In this document: positions 16,952-34,689 of the stretch, one piece after another
Position numbering within the stretch: the first letter of the stretch is position 1
Layout: the number at the start of each line of letters is the position of its first letter
NCBI GenBank assembly: GCA_963713865.1
Contig: OY970208.1
Coordinates: 1,920,001-1,984,000 of the forward strand
Source of the DNA: an uncultured candidate division Zixibacteria bacterium
Lineage (GTDB): Bacteria > Zixibacteria > MSB-5A5 > RBG-16-43-9
DNA: 64,000 nucleotides
Direction of reading: 5' to 3'
The notes under the pieces: model-generated
What the model was told of the DNA's origin: nothing
The model's input: the letters and a program-made list of their open reading frames with translations, nothing else
Database searches by the model: none
Position numbers and translations under genes: made by a program

Positions 16952-18676
16952 TTAAGACTCCAACTCCTTTAATATCTTAAGGAAACTATCCAAAACCTCA
17001 CCCTTTCTTATTAAAACCTGTGCCTTACTCCCTCTCACTTGCACCTCTACTTTATCTTCTTTAAGGCTTCTCTCTCCTATGGTTATCCTTAAAGGAATTC
17101 CAATCAGGTCAGCATCATTGAACTTAACCCCGGCTCGTTCATCTCGATCATCCAGAAGCACCTCGAAATTATTTTCCTGCATTTTATGATAGATTTCAGA
17201 TGCCACTTCTCTTTGTTTCTCATCCTGAATATTTACCGGAACAACCTCGACTAAAAAAGGTGCTATTGGTACAGGCCAGATTATCCCAAAATCATCGTGA
17301 AATTTTTCTACAGCTGCTTGTGCGGTCCTGGTTATCCCCACCCCATAGGAACCCATTATAAAAAATTTCTCTTTACCTTGTTCATCTATAAAGGTAGCAT
17401 TTAAAGCCTGGCTATACTTAGTGCCTAACATAAAGGTGTTACCTACCTCTATCCCTTTATCTATTTTCAACTTGCCTTTCTGACATTTAGGGCACAGCTC
17501 ACCTGCAGTAGCATTTCTAATATCTACAACTGCATCGACTTTAAAATCACGGTCAAGATTTACATTTACCAGATGTGAATCATCTGCATTTGCCCCGGTT
17601 ACAAAGTTAATCATCGACAGAAGTTCCTTATCCCCTATCAATTTAATGTTTTTTAAACCACCAGGACCAGCATATCCTACCTGCGCTCCCGTTATCTTTT
17701 GAACAGTTATTGAATCCGCCATCTCTAATTCGATAACTTTAAGATTGTTCTTAAGTTTGGTCTCATTAATCTGTCGATCTCCACGGATTAAAACAGCTAT
17801 TACCTCTCCATCTGCCTTATATAGAAGAGTCTTCACCAATTTTTTAGCAGGCACATTTAAAAATCCAGTAACCTCTTCCACGGTTTTCATATTTGGAGTA
17901 GCAACTTTTTGGATTGGCTTCTTAGTTTCCACGGTCTCGGGAATAACCGGCTCAATTGAAATGGCTTTCTCGATATTGGCGGCATAGTCGCAATCTTCAC
18001 AGGTAAATATTATATTCTCACCCCCATCCGTATCCACGATTACCATAAACTCATGGGCGGCTTTCCCTCCCATAGCTCCGGTATCAGACTCTACTAATTT
18101 TGTCTCTAAACCACATCTTTTAAAAATCTTAAAATAAGCATTAATCATCTTCTGATAGCTGAGCTTGAAATTTTCCTCGTCCGCATCAAATGAATAAGCA
18201 TCTTTCATAATGAACTCTCGCGATCTCATCAGTCCAAATCTGGGTCTTATCTCATCCCTGAATTTATTCTGGATCTGATAAAGATTTAATGGAAGCTGGC
18301 GATAAGACCTCAACTCCCCTTTTATCAAAAAGGTTACCACCTCTTCATGAGTACCACCCAGGACTAAATCCCTTAGATGCCGATCTTTCATCTTCATCAA
18401 CTCTTTTCCCACGGTCTCCCATCTTTTAGTCGCCTGCCAGAGTTCGGCTGGATGTAATACTGGCATCAATATCTCTTGAGCACCAGCTCGATTCATCTCT
18501 TCTCTAACTATCTGAGTAATTTTCAACAACACCCTTTGCATCAGAGGAAGATAATTATATACACCAGCCGCTAATTTACGGATATATCCAGCCCGAACTA
18601 AAAGCTTATGAGAGATAAGTTCCGACTCAGCCGGGTCCTCTCTTAAAGTGGGAATATATGTTTCAGACCATTTCAT
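16952..18676 (-). CDS. proS: Proline--tRNA ligase with INS editing domain
   Basis: FRDEIRPRFGLMRSREF, internal YbaK-like INS domain (KKLVKTLLY), MGSYGVGITR. Confidence 0.98.
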   Translation of the reverse strand: MKWSETYIPTLREDPAESELISHKLLVRAGYIRKLAAGVYNYLPLMQRVLLKITQIVREEMNRAGAQEILMPVLHPAELWQATKRWETVGKELMKMKDRHLRDLVLGGTHEEVVTFLIKGELRSYRQLPLNLYQIQNKFRDEIRPRFGLMRSREFIMKDAYSFDADEENFKLSYQKMINAYFKIFKRCGLETKLVESDTGAMGGKAAHEFMVIVDTDGGENIIFTCEDCDYAANIEKAISIEPVIPETVETKKPIQKVATPNMKTVEEVTGFLNVPAKKLVKTLLYKADGEVIAVLIRGDRQINETKLKNNLKVIELEMADSITVQKITGAQVGYAGPGGLKNIKLIGDKELLSMINFVTGANADDSHLVNVNLDRDFKVDAVVDIRNATAGELCPKCQKGKLKIDKGIEVGNTFMLGTKYSQALNATFIDEQGKEKFFIMGSYGVGITRTAQAAVEKFHDDFGIIWPVPIAPFLVEVVPVNIQDEKQREVASEIYHKMQENNFEVLLDDRDERAGVKFNDADLIGIPLRITIGERSLKEDKVEVQVRGSKAQVLIRKGEVLDSFLKILKELES

Positions 18677-26567: not shown

Positions 26568-26730
26568 TGTAGCGGAAACCTTTAGGTTTCCAGTTGTTAA
26601 GTGGAAGGCTGAAGTCTCAAGACCTTGTCCGAATTTGGATCCATGGGAACGGCCTTCCGCTACGTTTAGTAACCCCGCCTTGCCCTCAAGGTGGGCACAA
26701 TGTAGAGACGCATGGCTATGCGTCTCTACA
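26568..26730. repeat. Cluster of REP-like palindromes
   Basis: GTAGCGGAAACC...CCTTCCGCTAC, CCCCGCCTT...AAGGTGGG, TGTAGAGACGCAT-GGCT-ATGCGTCTCTACA. Confidence 0.8.
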
Positions 26731-26836
26731 AATAATGATCACATTATTTTTCATATCCTAATCGCTAATTCCCTCTCGTTAGTGCGGGAATTGGATTCCC
26801 TGCATACTAAGACAAAAAATATTACCTTCTACTTCT

Positions 26837-27595
26837 TCATCTCGCTCCTTTATGGACCAGGATGAAATCTTTAGCTAACTTTCCAATCTCTTCTGCCAAG
26901 TCCTCAGAGAGATGAACTTTTTCAAGATATTCCTTGCCCATTCTGGTATTTTTCGGATAAGTTGCCTCTAAGATTGCAAAATCTGCACCTTTTACTAATT
27001 CTTTTAATGAGGAACACATTCCCGTGTCACCGCTTATGGCGAGGACTTCTCCATTGTACGAAATCCTGTATCCCACAGCCGGTATCGGGTCAAGTATTCC
27101 GGAACCGTTTATGCCACCGCAGTGTTTCATCGGATAAGCCTTAATGGACATTTCTCCAACTTGAAAAGCTTCATAAGACTTAACTCCCCTGCAGGACAGT
27201 TCAAAAGGAATAGTATCCTGGTAACACTTTTTGAAATTATCTACCATGGAAAATACTTCTATGCATCCCTCTGGAGCAAAAATCGGGAGTAATTTTTTTC
27301 TGCCTGTCATCCTCAAGTATCCAAGGAGTGAATGTAGTCCGCCCACGTGATCAAAATGCCCGTGAGTGTAAATGATTCCCTTAAGTTGTTTGAAATCAAG
27401 TTCATTCGATATAAAATCCCTGAGTAAGCCGTCGCCGGTATCAATAAGTATAGAGCCATGCTCATTGCTGACCAGGACGTGCTGGGCTATCCCCGCAACT
27501 GCGTAAAAAATATCAGCTTTGATACTTTTCCCTACCCAGGATTGAATATTTTTTTCTCTTTTCTTCACTATAAGTAAGGGTTTCGGTATTCCCAC
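26837..27595 (-). CDS. MBL-fold metallo-hydrolase (RNase Z-like)
   Basis: LIDTGDG, THGHFDHVGG, SGDTG, LEATY, HL..., LVH; likely GTG start at 27595 because the ORF-track N-terminus reads through repeats. Confidence 0.85.
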   Translation of the reverse strand: MGIPKPLLIVKKREKNIQSWVGKSIKADIFYAVAGIAQHVLVSNEHGSILIDTGDGLLRDFISNELDFKQLKGIIYTHGHFDHVGGLHSLLGYLRMTGRKKLLPIFAPEGCIEVFSMVDNFKKCYQDTIPFELSCRGVKSYEAFQVGEMSIKAYPMKHCGGINGSGILDPIPAVGYRISYNGEVLAISGDTGMCSSLKELVKGADFAILEATYPKNTRMGKEYLEKVHLSEDLAEEIGKLAKDFILVHKGAR

Positions 27596-27666
27596 CTTAC
27601 CTTCTCCGAATTTGGATCCGTAGGAAAGGCGGGAACATTGTAGAGACGCATAGCTATGCGTCTCTA
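27591..27666. repeat. REP cluster, direct-orientation relative of 26628-26730
   Basis: TCCGAATTTGGATCC and TGTAGAGACGCAT(A/G)GCTATGCGTCTCTA are shared with the other cluster. Confidence 0.8.
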
Positions 27667-27857
27667 AGAGCTTCTCTCCTTCTTTTGACCATGCTAAATA
27701 CATACTGAAACACAATACCAACCGCTGCCAACCCACCCAAAACCCAACCGACAGTGGAATTGAATTTAAACGGCCAGATAACGCACCCGGCGTACACTAA
27801 AGCACCTCAAAGCACTGCCGCTACTACTGATCCAAATGCTTTAAACAGTTCACGCAT
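27654..27857 (-). pseudogene. Small two-TM membrane protein with internal TGA
   Basis: MRELFKAFGSVVAAVL*GALVYAGCVIWPFKFNSTVGWVLGGLAAVGIVFQYVFSMVKRRREALRDA*; TGA at 27807-27809. Confidence 0.45.
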
Positions 27858-27940: not shown

Positions 27941-28468
27941 TCATAATTTTAATTCAAGAATTTTCTTCCTTAGTGGTCGTTTGAATATGCCTAAGCATAG
28001 GGAATTCATAATCTCAATAGCTGCACTTAAACCTGCTCTAATTTTTTTCTCATACTCTTTAACATCTATCTCATCTTCATCTTGGCGAGGATGTGTAAGC
28101 TCGTCTCTAAACTTCTTGAGTTCAAGTAAACGACACCAGGAGGGTTCATGCTCAAAATCAAAACCGGGGACATACTTATAAATTAAAAATTTTAACTTGT
28201 CCTCAAATTTGTTGTAGGCTATTTGATCGATTATCTGAAAAGAGTTCCCAGAAAGGTCAAATTTTCTGTCAATCAAAAAAGCTATTTCATATGGTTGAAG
28301 GCCACTACCTTTGGTAAGAGTATCAGCTATATAGTTAATGAATGATTCAACGGCACTTATAACACAGAATACTGACACTCTATAGTATCTTTTGGCCTTA
28401 CCCCCATCTTTAATTGCTAATGCCTGTTCAAAAAACTTATTTGAATCTTCTAAATACTCTTTAAACAT
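27941..28468 (-). CDS. HEPN-like domain protein (putative RNase)
   Basis: All-helical; SAVESFIN N-terminal motif and RDELTH (Rx4H); likely ATG 28468, one base after the upstream stop. Confidence 0.65.
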   Translation of the reverse strand: MFKEYLEDSNKFFEQALAIKDGGKAKRYYRVSVFCVISAVESFINYIADTLTKGSGLQPYEIAFLIDRKFDLSGNSFQIIDQIAYNKFEDKLKFLIYKYVPGFDFEHEPSWCRLLELKKFRDELTHPRQDEDEIDVKEYEKKIRAGLSAAIEIMNSLCLGIFKRPLRKKILELKL

Positions 28469-28469
28469 A

Positions 28470-29732
28470 CTATATATCCTTTTTTGCCTTTTCAGCATCT
28501 CTTTTCATTCTTTTAGCCTCAAATGTTTTGATGGCTGCATTAGCCAATTTCGGAGTAATGCCACGTTTCTTAGCTTCTGTTGCTTGTAATATGAACACTT
28601 CTAGCATACGTCCAAGTTCAGTGTTATTAATTCGTGCAGCAAGCCCTCGATAAGTATCAGGATCTACACCTTTTAATCTTGCTGTTGATAAGGCTTTTGC
28701 GTTTAATGGATCATCAGGAGGAGATATTTCTACGAGAGAGTAATGATTTTTTAATGCTTCTAATTTTCGCTGAAGAAATCCAGCAACATATGCCCAACTG
28801 GCTGTTAAACAGGGATGTGTCGCTTTATTTGCAAACTCTAGGTAGTTGTCTGTATCACGTCCAAGGACTCGCTCTCGCTGTAACCAGTGAAGCTTTGAAA
28901 ATTGTTCGCCCATTGTTTTGAGATCCTTATCACTCCAGTTAATTTTGTCGCGTAAATTTTTATAATCTTCATCTGTGCCAGGCCCCGAAGAACAGACTTT
29001 AGGTAAATGAAATTCATTTGATTTAGCATTCTTGCCACTGTAAAAATTAACTAGTAAAGTTCTCGCTAATCGAACAGTAGGTACTCCTTCAGGACTTCTC
29101 CTATCTGCAAAATTTTGACCATCTTTTAGTAACCCTAAAGCTTGACACCAATCTCTTAATTGGGGTCCTAAAAGGTCTTCCTGCATTCTGTCTAATAAAT
29201 CATTTGATACTGCAATTGAGGTATTATTTGCCGTAGCAATATCGACTTTTTGTTCAAGAGATAAACCAAAATAGACTCTCACACCATGATACACTACGAC
29301 ATCTTTTTTATCAGCCTCCATTATAGCTTTAACACGATGTTGTCCTCCAAAAACCTTAAGGGGGTTTTCTGCTCTATAAGAAGTATCATATTCTACAACT
29401 AAATCCTCAAAACTTCTCCCTTTTAATGCGTCAGATTCCATTAATCGATATGCATAAGTATCTGTATAAATTTCGCGATTAAGTTTATAATCTTCGCTTT
29501 CTTCGGGATCTAATACTGCATCCAAATCAGTTTTGGAACTCAGTGCTTTTGAATCGAGATGGCAGTTTACGTAATAAGCTTTGCTTCTATTATCAAATAG
29601 CAGTAAAGGTTTGACACCGTTTATTTCTTCAAAAGTTTTAAAAACATAAAGAAATTCTTCCAGTTTTTCCTTCACTCCTGCATTTGGTTTAAATCCTGCT
29701 GGCGTAATAAACGCTGCTTTTATACTTTTCAT
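28470..29732 (-). CDS. DGQHR/DndB-like (ParB/Srx superfamily) domain protein
   Basis: LKVFGGQHRVKAI (GGQHR variant), downstream ATANNT equivalent to the family F..IN motif; GAGGT RBS. Confidence 0.6.
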   Translation of the reverse strand: MKSIKAAFITPAGFKPNAGVKEKLEEFLYVFKTFEEINGVKPLLLFDNRSKAYYVNCHLDSKALSSKTDLDAVLDPEESEDYKLNREIYTDTYAYRLMESDALKGRSFEDLVVEYDTSYRAENPLKVFGGQHRVKAIMEADKKDVVVYHGVRVYFGLSLEQKVDIATANNTSIAVSNDLLDRMQEDLLGPQLRDWCQALGLLKDGQNFADRRSPEGVPTVRLARTLLVNFYSGKNAKSNEFHLPKVCSSGPGTDEDYKNLRDKINWSDKDLKTMGEQFSKLHWLQRERVLGRDTDNYLEFANKATHPCLTASWAYVAGFLQRKLEALKNHYSLVEISPPDDPLNAKALSTARLKGVDPDTYRGLAARINNTELGRMLEVFILQATEAKKRGITPKLANAAIKTFEAKRMKRDAEKAKKDI

Positions 29733-29771: not shown

Positions 29772-29827
29772 AGTGCTGTCGGAAGTTACATCCCGACAGG
29801 TGTCAGGTGGTACCACCTGACACCACT
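29772..29827. repeat. 56-bp double-hairpin repeat
   Basis: CTGTCGGA...CCCGACAG and GGTGTCAGGTGG-TA-CCACCTGACACC palindromes. Confidence 0.8.
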
Positions 29828-29909
29828 ACGAATTACATAAATAAATTTGCGCAACTATTTGGACTTCAAATATTTCTACCCTGTTAACTAAAATTATTCA
29901 CTTTAATCT

Positions 29910-30404
29910 TTATGTATGTCTTGAACCTTCGTCTTGTTTGTGTGTTATCGGCCATATCTTAGCTTTTGAGACCCGCAAAAGATCCTGAAGACCTATCTCA
30001 AGGCTTCGGTCATTTCTTCCAACCCCACAATAAACAACATCCATATTCAGTACATTTTCATCAAATATAGCTTTTATGCTATCTCTTGTTGGGATAGGGC
30101 AAATTCCTCCCATTTGGAAACCCAGTTCTGACTTCATCTCTTCTGTAGAAGGTTTTACTAAGTCATCACGATCAACACCAAAGGCTGTTGCCAATTTACG
30201 GTACTCAACTTTGTCTAGTCCTTTGATCACAGCCAGAATCCAGAATGAATTTCTAATTCTAAAGACGAGTGTTTTTAACAGTCTTTCTCTTGGAAAAGGC
30301 AATTTCTTCTCTACGTCCAGCATTGTTATAACAGGTTCATGTTCATGAATTCTGAATGTCGCGCCTTTTTCTCTAAGTATTCTTATGACTTCATCATACA
30401 CCAT
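29910..30404 (-). CDS. YbaK/ProX-family aminoacyl-tRNA deacylase-like protein
   Basis: LLKTLVF conserved Lys, GFQMGGICP, VYCGVG...SLEI. Confidence 0.88.
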   Translation of the reverse strand: MVYDEVIRILREKGATFRIHEHEPVITMLDVEKKLPFPRERLLKTLVFRIRNSFWILAVIKGLDKVEYRKLATAFGVDRDDLVKPSTEEMKSELGFQMGGICPIPTRDSIKAIFDENVLNMDVVYCGVGRNDRSLEIGLQDLLRVSKAKIWPITHKQDEGSRHT

Positions 30405-30421
30405 ATTATATTTTCTCCTTT

Positions 30422-31081
30422 CTACTGATTACTGGATAAGAAATGAGCTCCATTTGCTAAAAGTATTATCTTATCCTTTATTAATGAAATGACTTGACTT
30501 CTCTGAGAAAGAGTCGTTCCATCATTCCAGATTCGCCAGAACTCTTTTTCAAACTCTGTAACAATATGTTCATCTTCTATTTGTAAACCTTGAATTCGTT
30601 GGTATCCAAAGTTGTTTCTCACATCAATTGTTAGACTCTTCTTAGCCTTTACAATAAATACAAAAGGAAGTACTTCACGACAAAAGGCGACTTCATATAA
30701 AGGCAGATGCTGTAGAAGAGATACTATAGTCTGTAGAACTTTTATGATCTCCTTTGGTGTTGCTCTGAAGTTGGGTATTTGCCTGTGGACAATGCCACTT
30801 CTACAAAATTCTTCTATCGCATCAATTTCATAGATTTCCTTATAAGGTATCTTCCGCATATTAGAATGAATACTTTTGCTGCGTCGCCAGAGATCATTTG
30901 CTGCTACTCCAGCGGATGATTTTGTAGCTAAATCTTTTTCATAATACCGTAGTATTATAGATTTGGAGAAAAGATGCGATGAAAGATAACTTGAAGCTAC
31001 TAAAGTGGTGATTCCTTTTTGTTCAATATTATCAATGTGCTTGATATATTCATCTGTCGTTCTAAAAATGTGGATTGGCAT
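30422..31081 (-). CDS. Hypothetical protein with DUF5753-like pattern, no HTH
   Basis: C-terminal IEDEHIVTEFEKEFWRIWNDGTTLSQRSQVISLI resembles the DUF5753 C-terminus (visual resemblance only). Confidence 0.45.
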   Translation of the reverse strand: MPIHIFRTTDEYIKHIDNIEQKGITTLVASSYLSSHLFSKSIILRYYEKDLATKSSAGVAANDLWRRSKSIHSNMRKIPYKEIYEIDAIEEFCRSGIVHRQIPNFRATPKEIIKVLQTIVSLLQHLPLYEVAFCREVLPFVFIVKAKKSLTIDVRNNFGYQRIQGLQIEDEHIVTEFEKEFWRIWNDGTTLSQRSQVISLIKDKIILLANGAHFLSSNQ

Positions 31082-31098
31082 AACTTTTCCTCGTTTGT

Positions 31099-32469
31099 TT
31101 ATCCCTTAGAAATATCCGCAATCACCGGCGAGGCAAGCTTTATAAGATCAACAACTGAAATCCTTAATGATTCAGTCCGTTTTCCAGTTCCGCAGTACAC
31201 CATTTCGAGTTCTTTGATTCGATTATCAAGAATGACATTTATAGAACGCGGGTATCCAAAAGGAGGGATTCCTCCAATACTAAAACCAGTAATTTCTTCC
31301 ACCTCTTGCGCAGTTGCTATCTTAATCTGATCTCTCTTAACTTCTAAAATATAAGCTACTTTTGCAAAGTCCATCCTTCTATGTGCTTGAAGTACCACTG
31401 CAAAGTATTGTGGTTGTTGTCCAATAGGGCTGTCTTTCTGAGTTATCGGGATAATCTTAATTATAATCGATTTGATCAACTCTAGTTTCTGCACGTCAAG
31501 AACAGATGCTACATCATCAGGAGACATCACGGGAGCATGCACCTTAATATTCGGAACAATATGATTATTTTCCAAAAGACGCATTATGTTCAAGTAGCCA
31601 TATGTCTCTTGTTCGGTATCAAGCTTCCCTTTTTTTCTGCAAATCGCCACAATATACGGACCTCCAGCAATTTGCTCATTAAGTCTCAATTCTTTATCTA
31701 CTATAGTGCATAGTTGTTTTGCTTTTTCACTTTTGAAAATAGAATGTGGGAATAATGAAGTAAGAGTGGGAAAGGTAGAAAGTTCTACTATCTCAAAATA
31801 GCTTCCTAACATATCTCTTACTTCCTGGAGTGAATACGCACGAACAGCTACATCATAATTCTCACTCTTAAAATTAACCTTGAGAAACCCTGTTTTTGGG
31901 TCAAAACGTGCAGATAGACTTGGCGCCCATTCTAGACTATCAATTTGAACTACAAGAGATTGTTTGTTATAGAATGATATTAGGAAGACACCACTAGGCT
32001 CAAGAACTCTTTTTACCTCCCTTAACAATGGGGATAATTCCCGAACGAAACTTCCCATGCCGAATCCTGAGTTAATAAAGGAAATACTTGAATTAGAAAC
32101 ATCGGTAAGAAGATCCTCTTCTAAGTCTCTAACTACAAACTGGATATTACCTGCTGATTTATGCAGCTTTTTTTTCTGCGCTACTTTAATCATCTCAGAA
32201 CTGAAATCATATCCACGAACTTGATCAAAATGTCTATGAAAGTAAAAAGCATCTCTACCTGTTCCGCAACCGAGATCTAGAGCAATTCGTCTGCGGTTCT
32301 TATCTAATGATTCAATGGTGCGATTGATAACCTCCAATTCATACTCCATATAACTACCTGTGGCGAAGTTTGAGGCTGCATATATCTTATCATATTCCTC
32401 TGCAGATTTGTTAGAGAGTTCTTTATGACGTTGCTTCCCTATAGTCCAATTATCTATAGTTTCAACCAT
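31099..32469 (-). CDS. Class I SAM methyltransferase fused to a C-terminal YbaK/ProX domain
   Basis: ALDLGCGTG, GYDFSSEMI, RVLEPSG; C-terminal ELIKSII, TGFSIGGIPPFG, VYCGTG; AGGAGG RBS. Confidence 0.88.
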   Translation of the reverse strand: MVETIDNWTIGKQRHKELSNKSAEEYDKIYAASNFATGSYMEYELEVINRTIESLDKNRRRIALDLGCGTGRDAFYFHRHFDQVRGYDFSSEMIKVAQKKKLHKSAGNIQFVVRDLEEDLLTDVSNSSISFINSGFGMGSFVRELSPLLREVKRVLEPSGVFLISFYNKQSLVVQIDSLEWAPSLSARFDPKTGFLKVNFKSENYDVAVRAYSLQEVRDMLGSYFEIVELSTFPTLTSLFPHSIFKSEKAKQLCTIVDKELRLNEQIAGGPYIVAICRKKGKLDTEQETYGYLNIMRLLENNHIVPNIKVHAPVMSPDDVASVLDVQKLELIKSIIIKIIPITQKDSPIGQQPQYFAVVLQAHRRMDFAKVAYILEVKRDQIKIATAQEVEEITGFSIGGIPPFGYPRSINVILDNRIKELEMVYCGTGKRTESLRISVVDLIKLASPVIADISKG

Positions 32470-32547
32470 GGTTGTCCTCCTTTAATAATCTTGCCAAATA
32501 GTTTATAAATAAATAGGCTGAACAGATTTTTTCTCTGTTCTTTGTTT

Positions 32548-32619
32548 TGTAGGGGCGTATTGCAATATGCCCTACTTCTTCTGACCCTCCCTCTTATCCC
32601 TCCCTACAAGGGAGGGAAG
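32548..32619. repeat. REP-like elements overlapping the folD 3' end
   Basis: GTAGGGGCGTATTGCAATATGCCCTAC and CCCTCCC-TACAA-GGGAGGG. Confidence 0.75.
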
Positions 32620-33509
32620 ATTAAACCAACCCCTTTCTGCATCTTCGCTGCTTTTAGCGTATTTGACAAAAGCATCGCCACGGTCATTGGTCCTACTCCG
32701 CCGGGGACAGGGGTTATGGCTTTTGCTACTTCTTTTACCTCCTCAAAATCCACGTCTCCAAAAATCCTGTAACCTTTTTCTGCGGTTTTATCCTCTACCC
32801 TATTCACTCCTACGTCTATCACCACAGCTCCCGGGCTTACCATATCTCTGGTTAAAAATTTCGGTTTGCCCATAGCGGCAACGATTATATCTGCCTGTTT
32901 GGTATATTTGGGAATATCCTTTGTCCCGGTATGAACTAAAGTAACTGTGGCATTGGCGCCTTTTGCTTTCTGGGACAAAATCACGGAAAGCGGTCTGCCC
33001 ACTAAACTGCCACGTCCTAAAATAACCACGTGCTTACCTGAAGGGTCATTTCCGCTTCTCATTAAAAGCTCCTGAATCCCATAAGGAGTGCAGGGTAAAA
33101 AAGTGGGCTTACCAGCCAGCATAAGCCCCAAATTATAAGGATGAAAACCATCCACGTCCTTTTCCGGGGAAATGGCTTTGATTATCTTTTCTTCAGAAAT
33201 TTGCTCAGGCAGCGGAAGCTGAACCAAAATTCCACTGATCTTATCTTTGTTATTTAGCTCTGCAATTAAATCAAGAAGCTCAGATTCTTTCATCTCCCTG
33301 GGATATTTTAAAACCTCAGAATAAATCCCGGCTTCCTCGCAGGCTTTTGCCTTGCTTCTTACATAGATTTGAGAAGCTGGGTTATCCCCCACTAAAACCG
33401 CAGCCAAGCCAGGGACTATACCCTTGCTTTTCAAGGTCTCAGTTTCACTTTTGACTTCTGCTCTGATCTGTTCTGAAATCTTTTTGCCATCGATTAATTC
33501 AGCCGCCAT
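32604..33509 (-). CDS. folD: Methylenetetrahydrofolate dehydrogenase/cyclohydrolase
   Basis: LVQLPLP, KDVDGFHP, PCTP, TPVPGGVGPMT. Confidence 0.98.
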   Translation of the reverse strand: MAAELIDGKKISEQIRAEVKSETETLKSKGIVPGLAAVLVGDNPASQIYVRSKAKACEEAGIYSEVLKYPREMKESELLDLIAELNNKDKISGILVQLPLPEQISEEKIIKAISPEKDVDGFHPYNLGLMLAGKPTFLPCTPYGIQELLMRSGNDPSGKHVVILGRGSLVGRPLSVILSQKAKGANATVTLVHTGTKDIPKYTKQADIIVAAMGKPKFLTRDMVSPGAVVIDVGVNRVEDKTAEKGYRIFGDVDFEEVKEVAKAITPVPGGVGPMTVAMLLSNTLKAAKMQKGVGLIFPPL

Positions 33510-34321: not shown

Positions 34322-34460
34322 ATTGACTCCTTTTAATAAAGTAAAAATATTTAGTTCATTTTACACAAATAGAAAAATTAATCAAGGGAAAAATTAAGAG
34401 AAATATAAAATTTATATCCAAGATATCCTTTCGAGCTGAAGTAAATAAGTTAATTATTTT

Positions 34461-34689
34461 CGTAGTGCGACCCTTTAGGGTCGCATAAGCGAGGCTAAAG
34501 CCTCACACTACGATAAACTAAAAAAGCAAAGCTGAAGCCTTGCCCTACAAATTGTAATCAAAAACTTATCCTATATAAAAAGGGCAGGACGATGTCCTGC
34601 CCCTACAATTCCCTCTCTTTTTCAAGGAGAGGGTAAGGGCGTACTACCATATAAAAAATTAAGGGCAGACACGGGGATCTGCCCCTACA
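34461..34689. repeat. Cluster of REP-like palindromes
   Basis: CGTAGTGCGACCC...CACTACG, AGGGCAGGAC-GAT-GTCCTGCCCCTACA, AGGGCAGA...TCTGCCCCTACA. Confidence 0.8.

Follow-up and report, generated by a model that had tools for sequence, protein, structure and literature searches.

A three-gene accessory operon in a Zixibacteria genome encodes a methyltransferase-YbaK fusion, a predicted phospholipase D-fold protein and a second YbaK-like protein

The window analysed here is a stretch of 64,000 nucleotides from the genome of an uncultured Zixibacteria bacterium (assembly GCA_963713865.1, contig OY970208.1, positions 1,920,001 to 1,984,000). It contains an operon of three genes, numbered 1 to 3 in the direction of transcription. 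Gene 1 encodes a class I S-adenosylmethionine (SAM)-dependent methyltransferase fused to a YbaK-type domain. Gene 2 encodes a protein predicted to adopt the phospholipase D (PLD)/Nuc fold without the HKD motif, and gene 3 a free-standing YbaK-like protein. All parts of the operon belong to known superfamilies, and the architecture is without a description that we could find. The module is foreign to this lineage and horizontally acquired. We tentatively read the operon as a conflict-type module, of the toxin-immunity or defence kind, that would target translation through the chemistry of the charged tRNA 3′ end. This reading is supported by the tight spacers with Shine-Dalgarno sites, the conserved gene order, the foreign status of the module, the intact lysine and loop of the YbaK domains, and a methyltransferase module whose nearest structural match is the tRNA methyltransferase CmoM.

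Organization of the operon

An initial annotation, made from the letters of the window, had described three co-oriented genes 17 nucleotides apart: a class I SAM methyltransferase (DLGCGTG) fused to a complete YbaK domain with the conserved lysine and a GGIPPFG loop, a second protein, and a stand-alone YbaK with a VYCGxG tail. It had also noted that the prolyl-tRNA synthetase (ProRS) of the window has its own INS editing domain. Each of these points agrees with the present analysis. The open reading frames (ORFs) lie exactly where they had been placed, both spacers carry Shine-Dalgarno-like sites, and the family assignments and motifs are recovered by profile and structure comparison as described below (Table 1). 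A strong Shine-Dalgarno sequence, AAAGGAGG, also precedes gene 1. The three genes are real rather than chance ORFs because each of them has many homologues.

A profile search of the whole genome detects three tRNA_edit domains, which are the INS domain of ProRS, the C-terminal module of gene 1, and gene 3. The predicted complex between the products of genes 1 and 2 scores 0.24, against a mark of 0.32, which speaks neither for nor against an interaction. Among sequencing runs, a search returned a single DNA run, with a word share of 0.06, and listed no RNA run.

Table 1. Coordinates of the operon and of nearby features, numbered from the first letter of the window.
Feature	Position	Strand	Basis
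Gene 1, methyltransferase::YbaK-type fusion, 456 aa	31099-32469	minus	ORF + Pfam
Methyltransferase module of gene 1, residues 8-282, N-terminal helices and lid included	31624-32448	minus	VIA-align
YbaK-type module of gene 1, residues 293-455	31105-31593	minus	VIA-align, alignment
17-nt spacer gene 1/gene 2, GAGGA ribosome-binding site ACAAACGAGGAAAAGTT	31082-31098	minus	
Gene 2, predicted PLD/Nuc-fold family without HKD motif, 219 aa	30422-31081	minus	ORF + model
17-nt spacer gene 2/gene 3, AAGGAG ribosome-binding site AAAGGAGAAAATATAAT	30405-30421	minus	
Gene 3, free-standing YbaK-type protein, 164 aa	29910-30404	minus	ORF + Pfam
Two adjacent hairpins after gene 3: 26-nt perfect palindrome, then 22-nt hairpin, no T-run following	29777-29824	minus	
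DndB-like neighbour, 420 aa, GGQHR motif	28470-29732	minus	ESM Atlas features
Neighbour with Rx4H motif FRDELTH, 185 aa; 29-nt overlap with DndB-like gene	27941-28498	minus	
Terminator-like hairpin after 185-aa gene	27773-27791	minus	
Pair of hairpins in the folD/gene 1 gap; 32552-32573 is a member of a dispersed repeat family	32520-32573		
proS, with its own INS editing domain (17552-17899)	16952-18676	minus	PF04073

The methyltransferase module of gene 1

Gene 1 is a class I SAM-dependent methyltransferase by its fold, its motif I, and its acidic residues after β2 and β4. Methyltransf_25 matches residues 64-160 with an E-value of 2.6e-15, and the cut-offs of Methyltransf_25, Methyltransf_11, and Methyltransf_31 in Pfam are all exceeded. 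Motif I reads ALDLGCGTGR, with DLGCGTG at residues 65-71. The predicted model of the full-length protein is compact, with a predicted local distance difference test (pLDDT) score of 88.7 and a predicted template modelling (pTM) score of 0.88.

An alignment of 25 fusion members, which share 37-78% identity with the query, contains 51 invariant columns. The invariant residues of the methyltransferase core include D65, G67, G69, G71, D88, and D115. Further invariant positions are Y26, A36, T37, Y40, M41, E44, and the stretch F136-G-M-x-S-F141; A36, T37, Y40, M41, and E44 constitute an N-terminal motif specific to the fusion family.

The top structural match of the module in VIA-align is CmoM (8joz_A), with a Z score of 24.8 at a root mean square deviation (rmsd) of 2.8 over 246 of 257 residues. 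TM1389 (2avn_A, Z 24.7) and a second CmoM structure (4htf_A, Z 23.2) rank close to it. The next entries, DhpI (20.6) and CgnL, score 20.0-20.6, and other listed methyltransferases score about 19-20. CmoM and TM1389 therefore stand about 4 Z units above the other methyltransferases, within a fold that matches about 1000 methyltransferase chains at Z 19-25.

Orthology with CmoM was considered and rejected, as gene 1 scores 26 bits with NF008264 against a cut-off of 366. The best CmoB match in the genome (TIGR00452) has 30 bits against a cut-off of 275, and with no CmoB above the cut-off, 5-carboxymethoxyuridine (cmo5U) is probably not made here.

The structural neighbours of the module also bear on a different explanation, which we consider unlikely, namely that the operon serves small-molecule metabolism or resistance. 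The YbaK domains would then act on a small molecule, of nucleoside type or otherwise, that mimics the aminoacyl-tRNA end, and hydrolyse its aminoacyl ester; the methyltransferase would form or modify a methyl ester or amine on it, with tRNA not being the substrate. The module does group with carboxyl, phosphonate, and small-molecule methyltransferases as well (TM1389, DhpI, and CgnL, Z 20-25), and it gives weak BioC, Mtf2, and UbiE-type matches in NCBIfam. Fusion members occur in Streptomyces, and a methyltransferase-only relative on metagenome contig L016 adjoins a gene of the FAD-binding oxidase type (PF01565). The pocket signature of the YbaK domains, however, is that of tRNA deacylases, and no plasmid record or record of the biosynthetic gene cluster type was found in the searches made.

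The YbaK-type domains of genes 1 and 3

YbaK-type proteins are housekeeping proofreaders of proline tRNA charging. The tRNA_edit family (PF04073) matches residues 311-445 of gene 1 with an E-value of 7.5e-23 and 81.4 bits, and gene 3 with an E-value of 4.1e-20 and 72.6 bits, compared with a cut-off of 25.5 bits. The YbaK module of gene 1 superimposes on APE2540 (1wdv_A) with a Z score of 22.8 and an rmsd of 1.4 over 149 residues, and on other YbaK/ProX structures with Z scores of 20-21. Gene 3 aligns over its full length with the YbaK proteins of E. coli and H. influenzae, placing K44 on the catalytic lysine.

In HMMER alignments, K333 of gene 1 and K44 of gene 3 coincide with the KT(L) lysine of the solved chains 1dbu, 2dxa, and 1wdv, which we take to be K46 of H. 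influenzae YbaK. The glycine-rich loop reads GGIPPFG in gene 1 and GGICPIP in gene 3; GGIPP and GGICP align with GGISP and GGVPP of solved YbaK chains, and the VYCGxG tail is present in both proteins. Among the 25 aligned fusion members, K333 is conserved in at least 90%, and T394-G-F, G399, P402, and F404 are invariant.

Between themselves, the YbaK modules of genes 1 and 3 share only 27% identity. Gene 1 and gene 3 score 55 and 61.3 bits, respectively, with the YbaK equivalog model TIGR00011 (cut-off 153.25), and 46 and 40.6 bits with NF007951 (cut-off 243). Judged by these scores, both modules are nearest to YbaK proper yet lie far below the equivalog cut-offs, and neither is an equivalog. 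Gene 3 is a second, divergent YbaK-type protein.

Catalytically intact YbaK modules would also suit a role in fidelity and detoxification against a non-protein amino acid, an explanation that we regard as somewhat unlikely. YbaK would strip the analogue from mischarged tRNA, the methyltransferase would methylate the freed analogue to prevent its re-activation, and the PLD-fold protein would serve as an accessory subunit for binding. By their residues, both modules look catalytically intact and nearest to the Cys-tRNA(Pro) deacylase type. The fusion of two enzymes usually signifies consecutive steps on one substrate, this fusion persists as one enzyme across many phyla (38-78% identity to the query over the full length), and its sporadic, accessory distribution fits niche-specific exposure to toxic analogues. 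The lineage manages otherwise without a free YbaK, however, and we found no precedent for such a route in the literature searched. The explanation also gives the PLD-fold protein no real role and leaves the caspase- and TIR-fused relatives described below unexplained.

Gene 2 is predicted to have a PLD fold that lacks the HKD site

The initial annotation had called gene 2 DUF5753-like. That assignment does not hold, as DUF5753 (PF19054) matches neither gene 2 nor the whole genome in Pfam at E ≤ 10. The Foldseek search that it had proposed leads to the PLD superfamily instead. Gene 2 matches no Pfam or NCBIfam family, the Pfam PLD models included. A HMMER search covering 1.84 billion representatives reveals a small family of 57 proteins at E ≤ 1e-3, 28 at E ≤ 1e-10, and 6 at E ≤ 1e-30.

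The AlphaFold model of gene 2, built on a 42-sequence alignment, has a mean pLDDT of 94.4 and a pTM of 0.90. Foldseek returned 38 matches in the PDB at E ≤ 1e-3, and the listed ones are members of the PLD superfamily or PLD-like domains (TrmBL2, FAM83). The best matches of the VIA search, which does not depend on Foldseek, are NucT (Z 13.3, rmsd 3.0 over 138 residues), TrmBL2 (13.2), the DUF1669 domain of FAM83B (12.5), Nuc (11.9), and Zucchini (10-11). TrmB, SauUSI, F13, PPK, and BfiI are also matched, and all 22 chains with Z ≥ 8 belong to the PLD superfamily.

Only G96, H99, and D153 are invariant among the 42 sequences. S35, F38, L64, E85, P139, F142, N157, Q161, Q164, and G165 are nearly invariant, and no lysine falls into either class. 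In a weak profile alignment to Zucchini (E 0.22), P139 and V141 occupy the H-x-K positions, and the asparagine (N157) is all that is kept of the motif. The canonical HKD site is judged absent because of this alignment and the lack of a conserved lysine. Going by its model, gene 2 represents a new PLD/Nuc-fold family that has lost the histidine and lysine of the HKD motif and carries a signature of its own, G96-x-x-H99, D153, N157, and Q161..Q164-G165. Its likeness to the non-catalytic PLD-like domains (TrmB/TrmBL2, FAM83) is at least as great as that to nucleases.

Other database matches of gene 2 are minor. A PADLOC match to Cas11a (E 1.4e-4, 20 bits) was judged spurious because the fold is PLD-like. 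DUF7436 gives weak partial matches in 10 of the 42 family members, the best with an E-value of 0.0055, and the ESM Atlas returned only unnamed clusters.

In distant relatives of gene 2 (E 1e-4 to 1e-8), the PLD-fold domain forms the C-terminal half of longer proteins. P0175 and P0174 have weak TIR-like domains at the N terminus, with 22.3 bits for the CAP12/Pycsar TIR family, under the Pfam cut-off of 24.7, and E-values of 4.8e-4 and 2.8e-3 for a PADLOC TIR effector. P0177 begins with a hydrophobic stretch, presumably transmembrane as read from its sequence, and P0156 with a domain that has no family assignment. The N-terminally extended relatives lack H99.

Conservation of the gene set

The fusion protein belongs to a family of 152 homologous clusters (E ≤ 1e-3 in a word-indexed search, clustered at 90% identity). 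Most of the 120 best matches, which were listed, are 445-480 residues long and contain both domains. Their sources, among the matches listed, include Desulfobacterales/Omnitrophota, Acetothermia, Ignavibacteria, and Tannerellaceae metagenome-assembled genomes (MAGs) and three Streptomyces genomes. Databases name these proteins only generically. The initial annotation knew of no described methyltransferase-YbaK fusion, and this still stands, with no characterised family found. A search of the Creative Commons-licensed articles in PubMed Central and of bioRxiv preprints yielded no paper that describes such a fusion, places YbaK in defence or conflict systems, or reports relevant YbaK gene clusters.

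Co-occurrence of the three genes in other genomes, the lack of which the initial annotation had named as a ground for refutation, is documented by two MAG records at NCBI. The closest homologues, with 78, 76, and 73% identity to genes 1, 2, and 3, carry consecutive accessions there (MBU4311459/60/61 and MCG2775633/34/35), and the gene order is therefore the same as in the window. Linkage in further genomes was deduced from equal lengths of the longest contigs reported by the database, not from sequence. Of the 20 non-self homologues of gene 2, 12 share the exact longest-contig size of a listed fusion homologue (6973, 3081, 8103, 13246, 9987, 6998, 5866, 4384, 14539, 29536, 2826, and 5613). A further match pairs a gene 2 representative of 38% identity, P0122, with a fusion of 56% identity, P0016 (33506).

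The search for gene 3 homologues was limited to 34 candidates. Among the 12 non-self homologues, 4 match the size of a fusion (6973, 8103, 2818, and 3081) and 5 that of a gene 2 homologue (6973, 8103, 3081, 4664, and 4041). Three sizes are common to homologues of all three genes.

A FastTree phylogeny was built from the window protein and the 108 listed fusion homologues of at least 430 residues, with 12 shorter ones left out. The window protein and P0001-P0016 form one clade. Within P0001-P0016, 11 of 16 have a gene 2 size match, P0001 has a gene 3 match only, and P0005, P0006, P0007, and P0014 have none. The sole match outside this clade is P0062/P0187 (5613); a near-match between P0135 and P0097, at 3295 and 3294, is within chance. 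Among 20 more distant gene 2 representatives, only P0122 shares its size with a listed fusion. Since the matches to the PLD-fold partner, P0062/P0187 excepted, fall within one clade, and the distant gene 2 representatives other than P0122 are without a fusion match, the fusion is the old, widely distributed core, to which one clade has added the PLD-fold partner and the second YbaK.

A scan of genome contigs with the gene 1 protein gave only four partial methyltransferase matches. In Streptomyces sp. Ag82_O1-15, one fusion sequence (P0055) appears under two GenBank accessions 23 numbers apart in one genome, which suggests two identical copies of the gene.

The operon lies in a variable locus

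The accessory status that the initial annotation had assigned to the operon is supported by its distribution. Among 61 genomes of the same genus, family, order, and class, the full-length fusion occurs in the window's own genome only, and the best match elsewhere (E 7.8e-13) covers only the methyltransferase part. The window's own genome is also the only one with the fusion among 285 genomes of the phylum (E ≤ 1e-25). The fusion is absent from all 401 genomes examined of another phylum, that of a Leptospiraceae-labelled MAG, and from the four genomes of a small further sample. Of 30 relatives searched for tRNA_edit domains, 27 have exactly one, always in a ProRS-sized ORF, and 3 (65, 82, and 76% complete) have none. 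A free YbaK is found in none of the 30.

Comparison of the DNA with four relatives reveals a spot where synteny is kept on both sides and the content between them differs. The conserved flanks comprise rny, a ymdB-like gene, and folD on one side and the genes up to about 25.9 kb of the window on the other. In one relative, G003, 2.4 kb take the place of the window's 6.7 kb, and in another, G006, the stretch from folD to the counterpart of window 27.6-27.9 kb measures 2.2 kb. Assemblies from the same genus break here. Because synteny is kept around differing content, window 27.9-32.6 kb looks like one variable insert downstream of folD that contains the Rx4H gene, the DndB-like gene, and the operon. 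Its GC content of 0.35-0.37 compares with 0.41-0.44 in the flanks; other parts of the window are equally low.

The cargo of the two relatives is of a different kind. The G003 locus (L107, G003:C3, 897-2620) encodes a PP-loop ATPase-like protein, with an SGGRDS motif read from its sequence, and a 163-residue protein. The G006 locus (L106, G006:C93, 658-2769) encodes proteins of 303 and 329 residues, the latter apparently a membrane protein, neither of which has a significant Pfam match.

The insert is bracketed by dispersed palindromes resembling repetitive extragenic palindromic (REP) elements, at 27599-27681 and 32552-32625. Dozens of copies that are 75-100% identical are scattered over the genomes of the four relatives, and short copies of window 32580-32625 are scattered in the relatives' genomes as well. 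In the window, such palindromes, for example TAGAGACGCATGGCTATGCGTCTCTA and GGGGCGTATTGCAATATGCCCT, occupy the intergenic gaps at 26622-26731, 27599-27681, 32552-32625, and about 34440-34560, and they flank a metallo-β-lactamase (MBL)-fold gene as well as the variable insert. The ORF of the MBL-fold gene (26837-27736) has a GTG start and an N-terminal extension of about 80 residues ahead of the Lactamase_B match, and this extension overlaps a REP-like element; the true start probably lies further downstream. No convincing direct repeats of the att-site type flank the insert, and a 19-nucleotide AT-rich pair at 29837 and 32505, 79% identical, is probably due to chance.

A locus of this kind could also hold genes that are adjacent but unrelated, or a decaying remnant. 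We consider this very improbable for the three genes. The region is indeed a hot spot with different cargo in the relatives, and most fusion homologues are without a PLD-fold partner. However, the 17-nucleotide spacers carry Shine-Dalgarno sites, the same three-gene order recurs in other records at 73-78% identity, and co-occurrence holds down to 56% identity for the fusion and 38% for gene 2. All ORFs are intact and their motifs are conserved.

Neighbouring genes and relatives with a possible link to conflict

The operon is followed, after a gap of 177 nucleotides with two hairpins, by a gene for a 420-residue protein. The hairpins may be a terminator, a processing site, or a REP-like element. 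Of the 30 named nearest clusters of this protein in the ESM Atlas, 29 carry PF14072 (DndB), with a score of 0.94 based on language-model features. Searches of Pfam (PF14072 included, E ≤ 10), NCBIfam, PADLOC, and PHROG gave no match.

The 185-residue protein encoded next to it matches nothing in Pfam, NCBIfam, PADLOC, or PHROG. The initial annotation had spoken of an adjacent HEPN cassette. What is found is the Rx4H motif FRDELTH, with no family-model match, and HEPN is a putative label taken from this motif. The DndB-like and Rx4H genes together may form a separate two-gene defence-type module.

A metagenome scan with generic methyltransferase motifs contributed two true relatives of gene 1 among the 80 loci kept. 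On contig L015 (162-2825), an 887-residue protein is sequentially composed of a caspase domain, about 260 unassigned residues, and a methyltransferase-YbaK module. The caspase domain matches PF00656 with an E-value of 4.4e-9 and 36.8 bits (cut-off 21.4), and the PADLOC caspase model with 1.1e-7. The methyltransferase-YbaK module is 33% identical to query residues 10-456. A tyrosine-recombinase-like fragment, read from its C-terminal motif, lies at the edge of the contig.

The other relative, on contig L016 (233-1057), is a stand-alone methyltransferase module of 274 residues with 41% identity to residues 5-280 and no YbaK domain. A 530-residue ORF with a FAD_binding_4 domain overlaps the 3′ end of its gene.

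Proposed function

In the conflict-type module that we tentatively favour, an aminoacyl ester would be the common target of the three products, with the aminoacylated CCA-3′ end of tRNA as the most plausible candidate. Gene 1 would use its YbaK domain to dock or hydrolyse the aminoacyl-adenosine end, and its fused methyltransferase would methylate either that substrate or what is released from it. The free YbaK would clear modified or mis-made aminoacyl-tRNA and thereby serve as a rescue or immunity function. The PLD-fold protein may be a non-canonical nucleic-acid- or phosphate-binding partner or a regulator. A compact protein of 456 residues could not reach both the anticodon and the acceptor end of a single tRNA. 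Should both domains act on tRNA, methylation would hence be expected at or close to the aminoacyl-adenosine, or on the released amino acid.

The ideas of the initial annotation, that an amino acid may be methylated on or off tRNA, that a deacylase may afford self-protection, and that the operon may be a translation-targeting defence module in which the middle gene is a sensor, are consistent with the data. Hints of a conflict flavour come from the caspase-fused relative, the TIR-like relatives of gene 2, and the DndB-like and Rx4H neighbours.

Gene 1 might be a new kind of tRNA-inactivating enzyme, a proposal that we regard as distinctly improbable. Its YbaK domain would capture the charged 3′ end, and its methyltransferase would block peptide-bond formation or recharging by methylating the aminoacyl α-amine or the terminal adenosine. 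As the antidote, the free YbaK would clear the methylated species, and the HKD-less PLD-fold protein would be the sensor or regulator, permitting the reaction in response to phage infection or other stress.

Several observations weigh against a conflict-type module. About 90 of the 108 full-length fusions in the tree show no sign of a PLD-fold partner, and the fusion looks like an ordinary conserved enzyme, for instance in Streptomyces, which fits a metabolic or fidelity role equally. No invariant basic residue is present in the N-terminal helices where R26 of CmoM would fall, in an approximate register drawn without residue-level superposition. The caspase-fused relative comes from just one contig, at 33% identity, and the TIR matches stay below the Pfam cut-off. 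No known defence system was matched in PADLOC, where only a partial mad2 and the weak Cas11a match appeared. Phages, plasmids, and viral contigs gave nothing for the module. Plasmids yielded no match for gene 1 or gene 2, phages none for gene 1, and viral contigs two partial matches. The odds remaining beyond the conflict-type module and the three rival explanations, which are detoxification, small-molecule metabolism, and unrelated cargo, belong to an explanation that we have not thought of.

Implications

Two YbaK-type proteins travel here as mobile cargo, accompanied by a methyltransferase and a protein of degenerate nuclease fold; the lineage otherwise has no free YbaK. Were charged tRNA its target, the module would constitute either a new form of translation shutdown or a coupled edit-and-detoxify route against toxic amino-acid analogues. 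Should the tRNA-methylating proposal be true, the operon would be an immune or toxin system that targets translation by a hitherto undescribed chemistry. Either way, the operon brings together three uncharacterised families: the methyltransferase-YbaK fusion, most of whose 152 clusters are two-domain, an HKD-less PLD-fold family outside Pfam, and a divergent YbaK. The predictions of the different readings are open to ordinary biochemistry.

Comparison with known systems

The methyltransferase module of gene 1 resembles CmoM over its whole length, including the N-terminal helices and the lid. The CmoM report (PMC10516636) describes an enzyme that methylates the carboxylate of cmo5U34 in tRNA by means of R26, W124, and Y247. 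In contrast to gene 1, CmoM has no fused YbaK domain, and in an approximate register its three residues are without evident invariant counterparts in gene 1. The fold match leaves the substrate unfixed because the carboxylate-binding arginine of CmoM lacks an evident counterpart.

Residues 33-234 of the methyltransferase module also match positions 266-426 of the 492-position PADLOC profile mad2 (PDLC04134) with an E-value of 3.6e-17. MADS is described (PMC13662399) as an eight-gene system of N6-methyladenine (m6A) DNA methylation. An assignment to MADS was rejected, as the mad2 match is only partial and five other genes scanned have no mad match at all. Gene 1 further differs in having no (D/N)PP(Y/F/W) motif of DNA amino-methyltransferases, as read from its sequence and the family consensus.

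Gene 2 shares with Nuc, NucT, and Zucchini, with TrmB and TrmBL2, and with FAM83 a predicted PLD fold over nearly its whole length (Z 10-13, 126-144 residues aligned). In having no conserved lysine and an invariant H99 and D153 of its own, it is more like the inactive PLD-like domains than the nucleases.

Among toxins that act on the tRNA acceptor end, TacT and AtaT acetylate aminoacyl-tRNA and are countered by Pth, and CapRel and FaRel2 pyrophosphorylate the CCA end and are countered by hydrolases. We know of no case in which methylation of aminoacyl-tRNA is the toxic act. These systems have no sequence relation to the operon; the likeness lies only in the proposed logic, in which a 3′-end modifier would be encoded with an enzyme able to clear its product.

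YbaK and the ProXp proteins, free-standing trans-editing deacylases of the INS superfamily (E. coli YbaK 2dxa, H. influenzae YbaK 1dbu, APE2540 1wdv, and T. thermophilus ProX 2cx5), have the same fold and signature as the YbaK-type domains of the operon, with Z scores of 20-23 and rmsd values of 1.4-2.5. The operon differs from them in that one of its YbaK copies is fused to a methyltransferase, and in that both copies came with an accessory island into a lineage where the only other such domain is the INS domain of ProRS.

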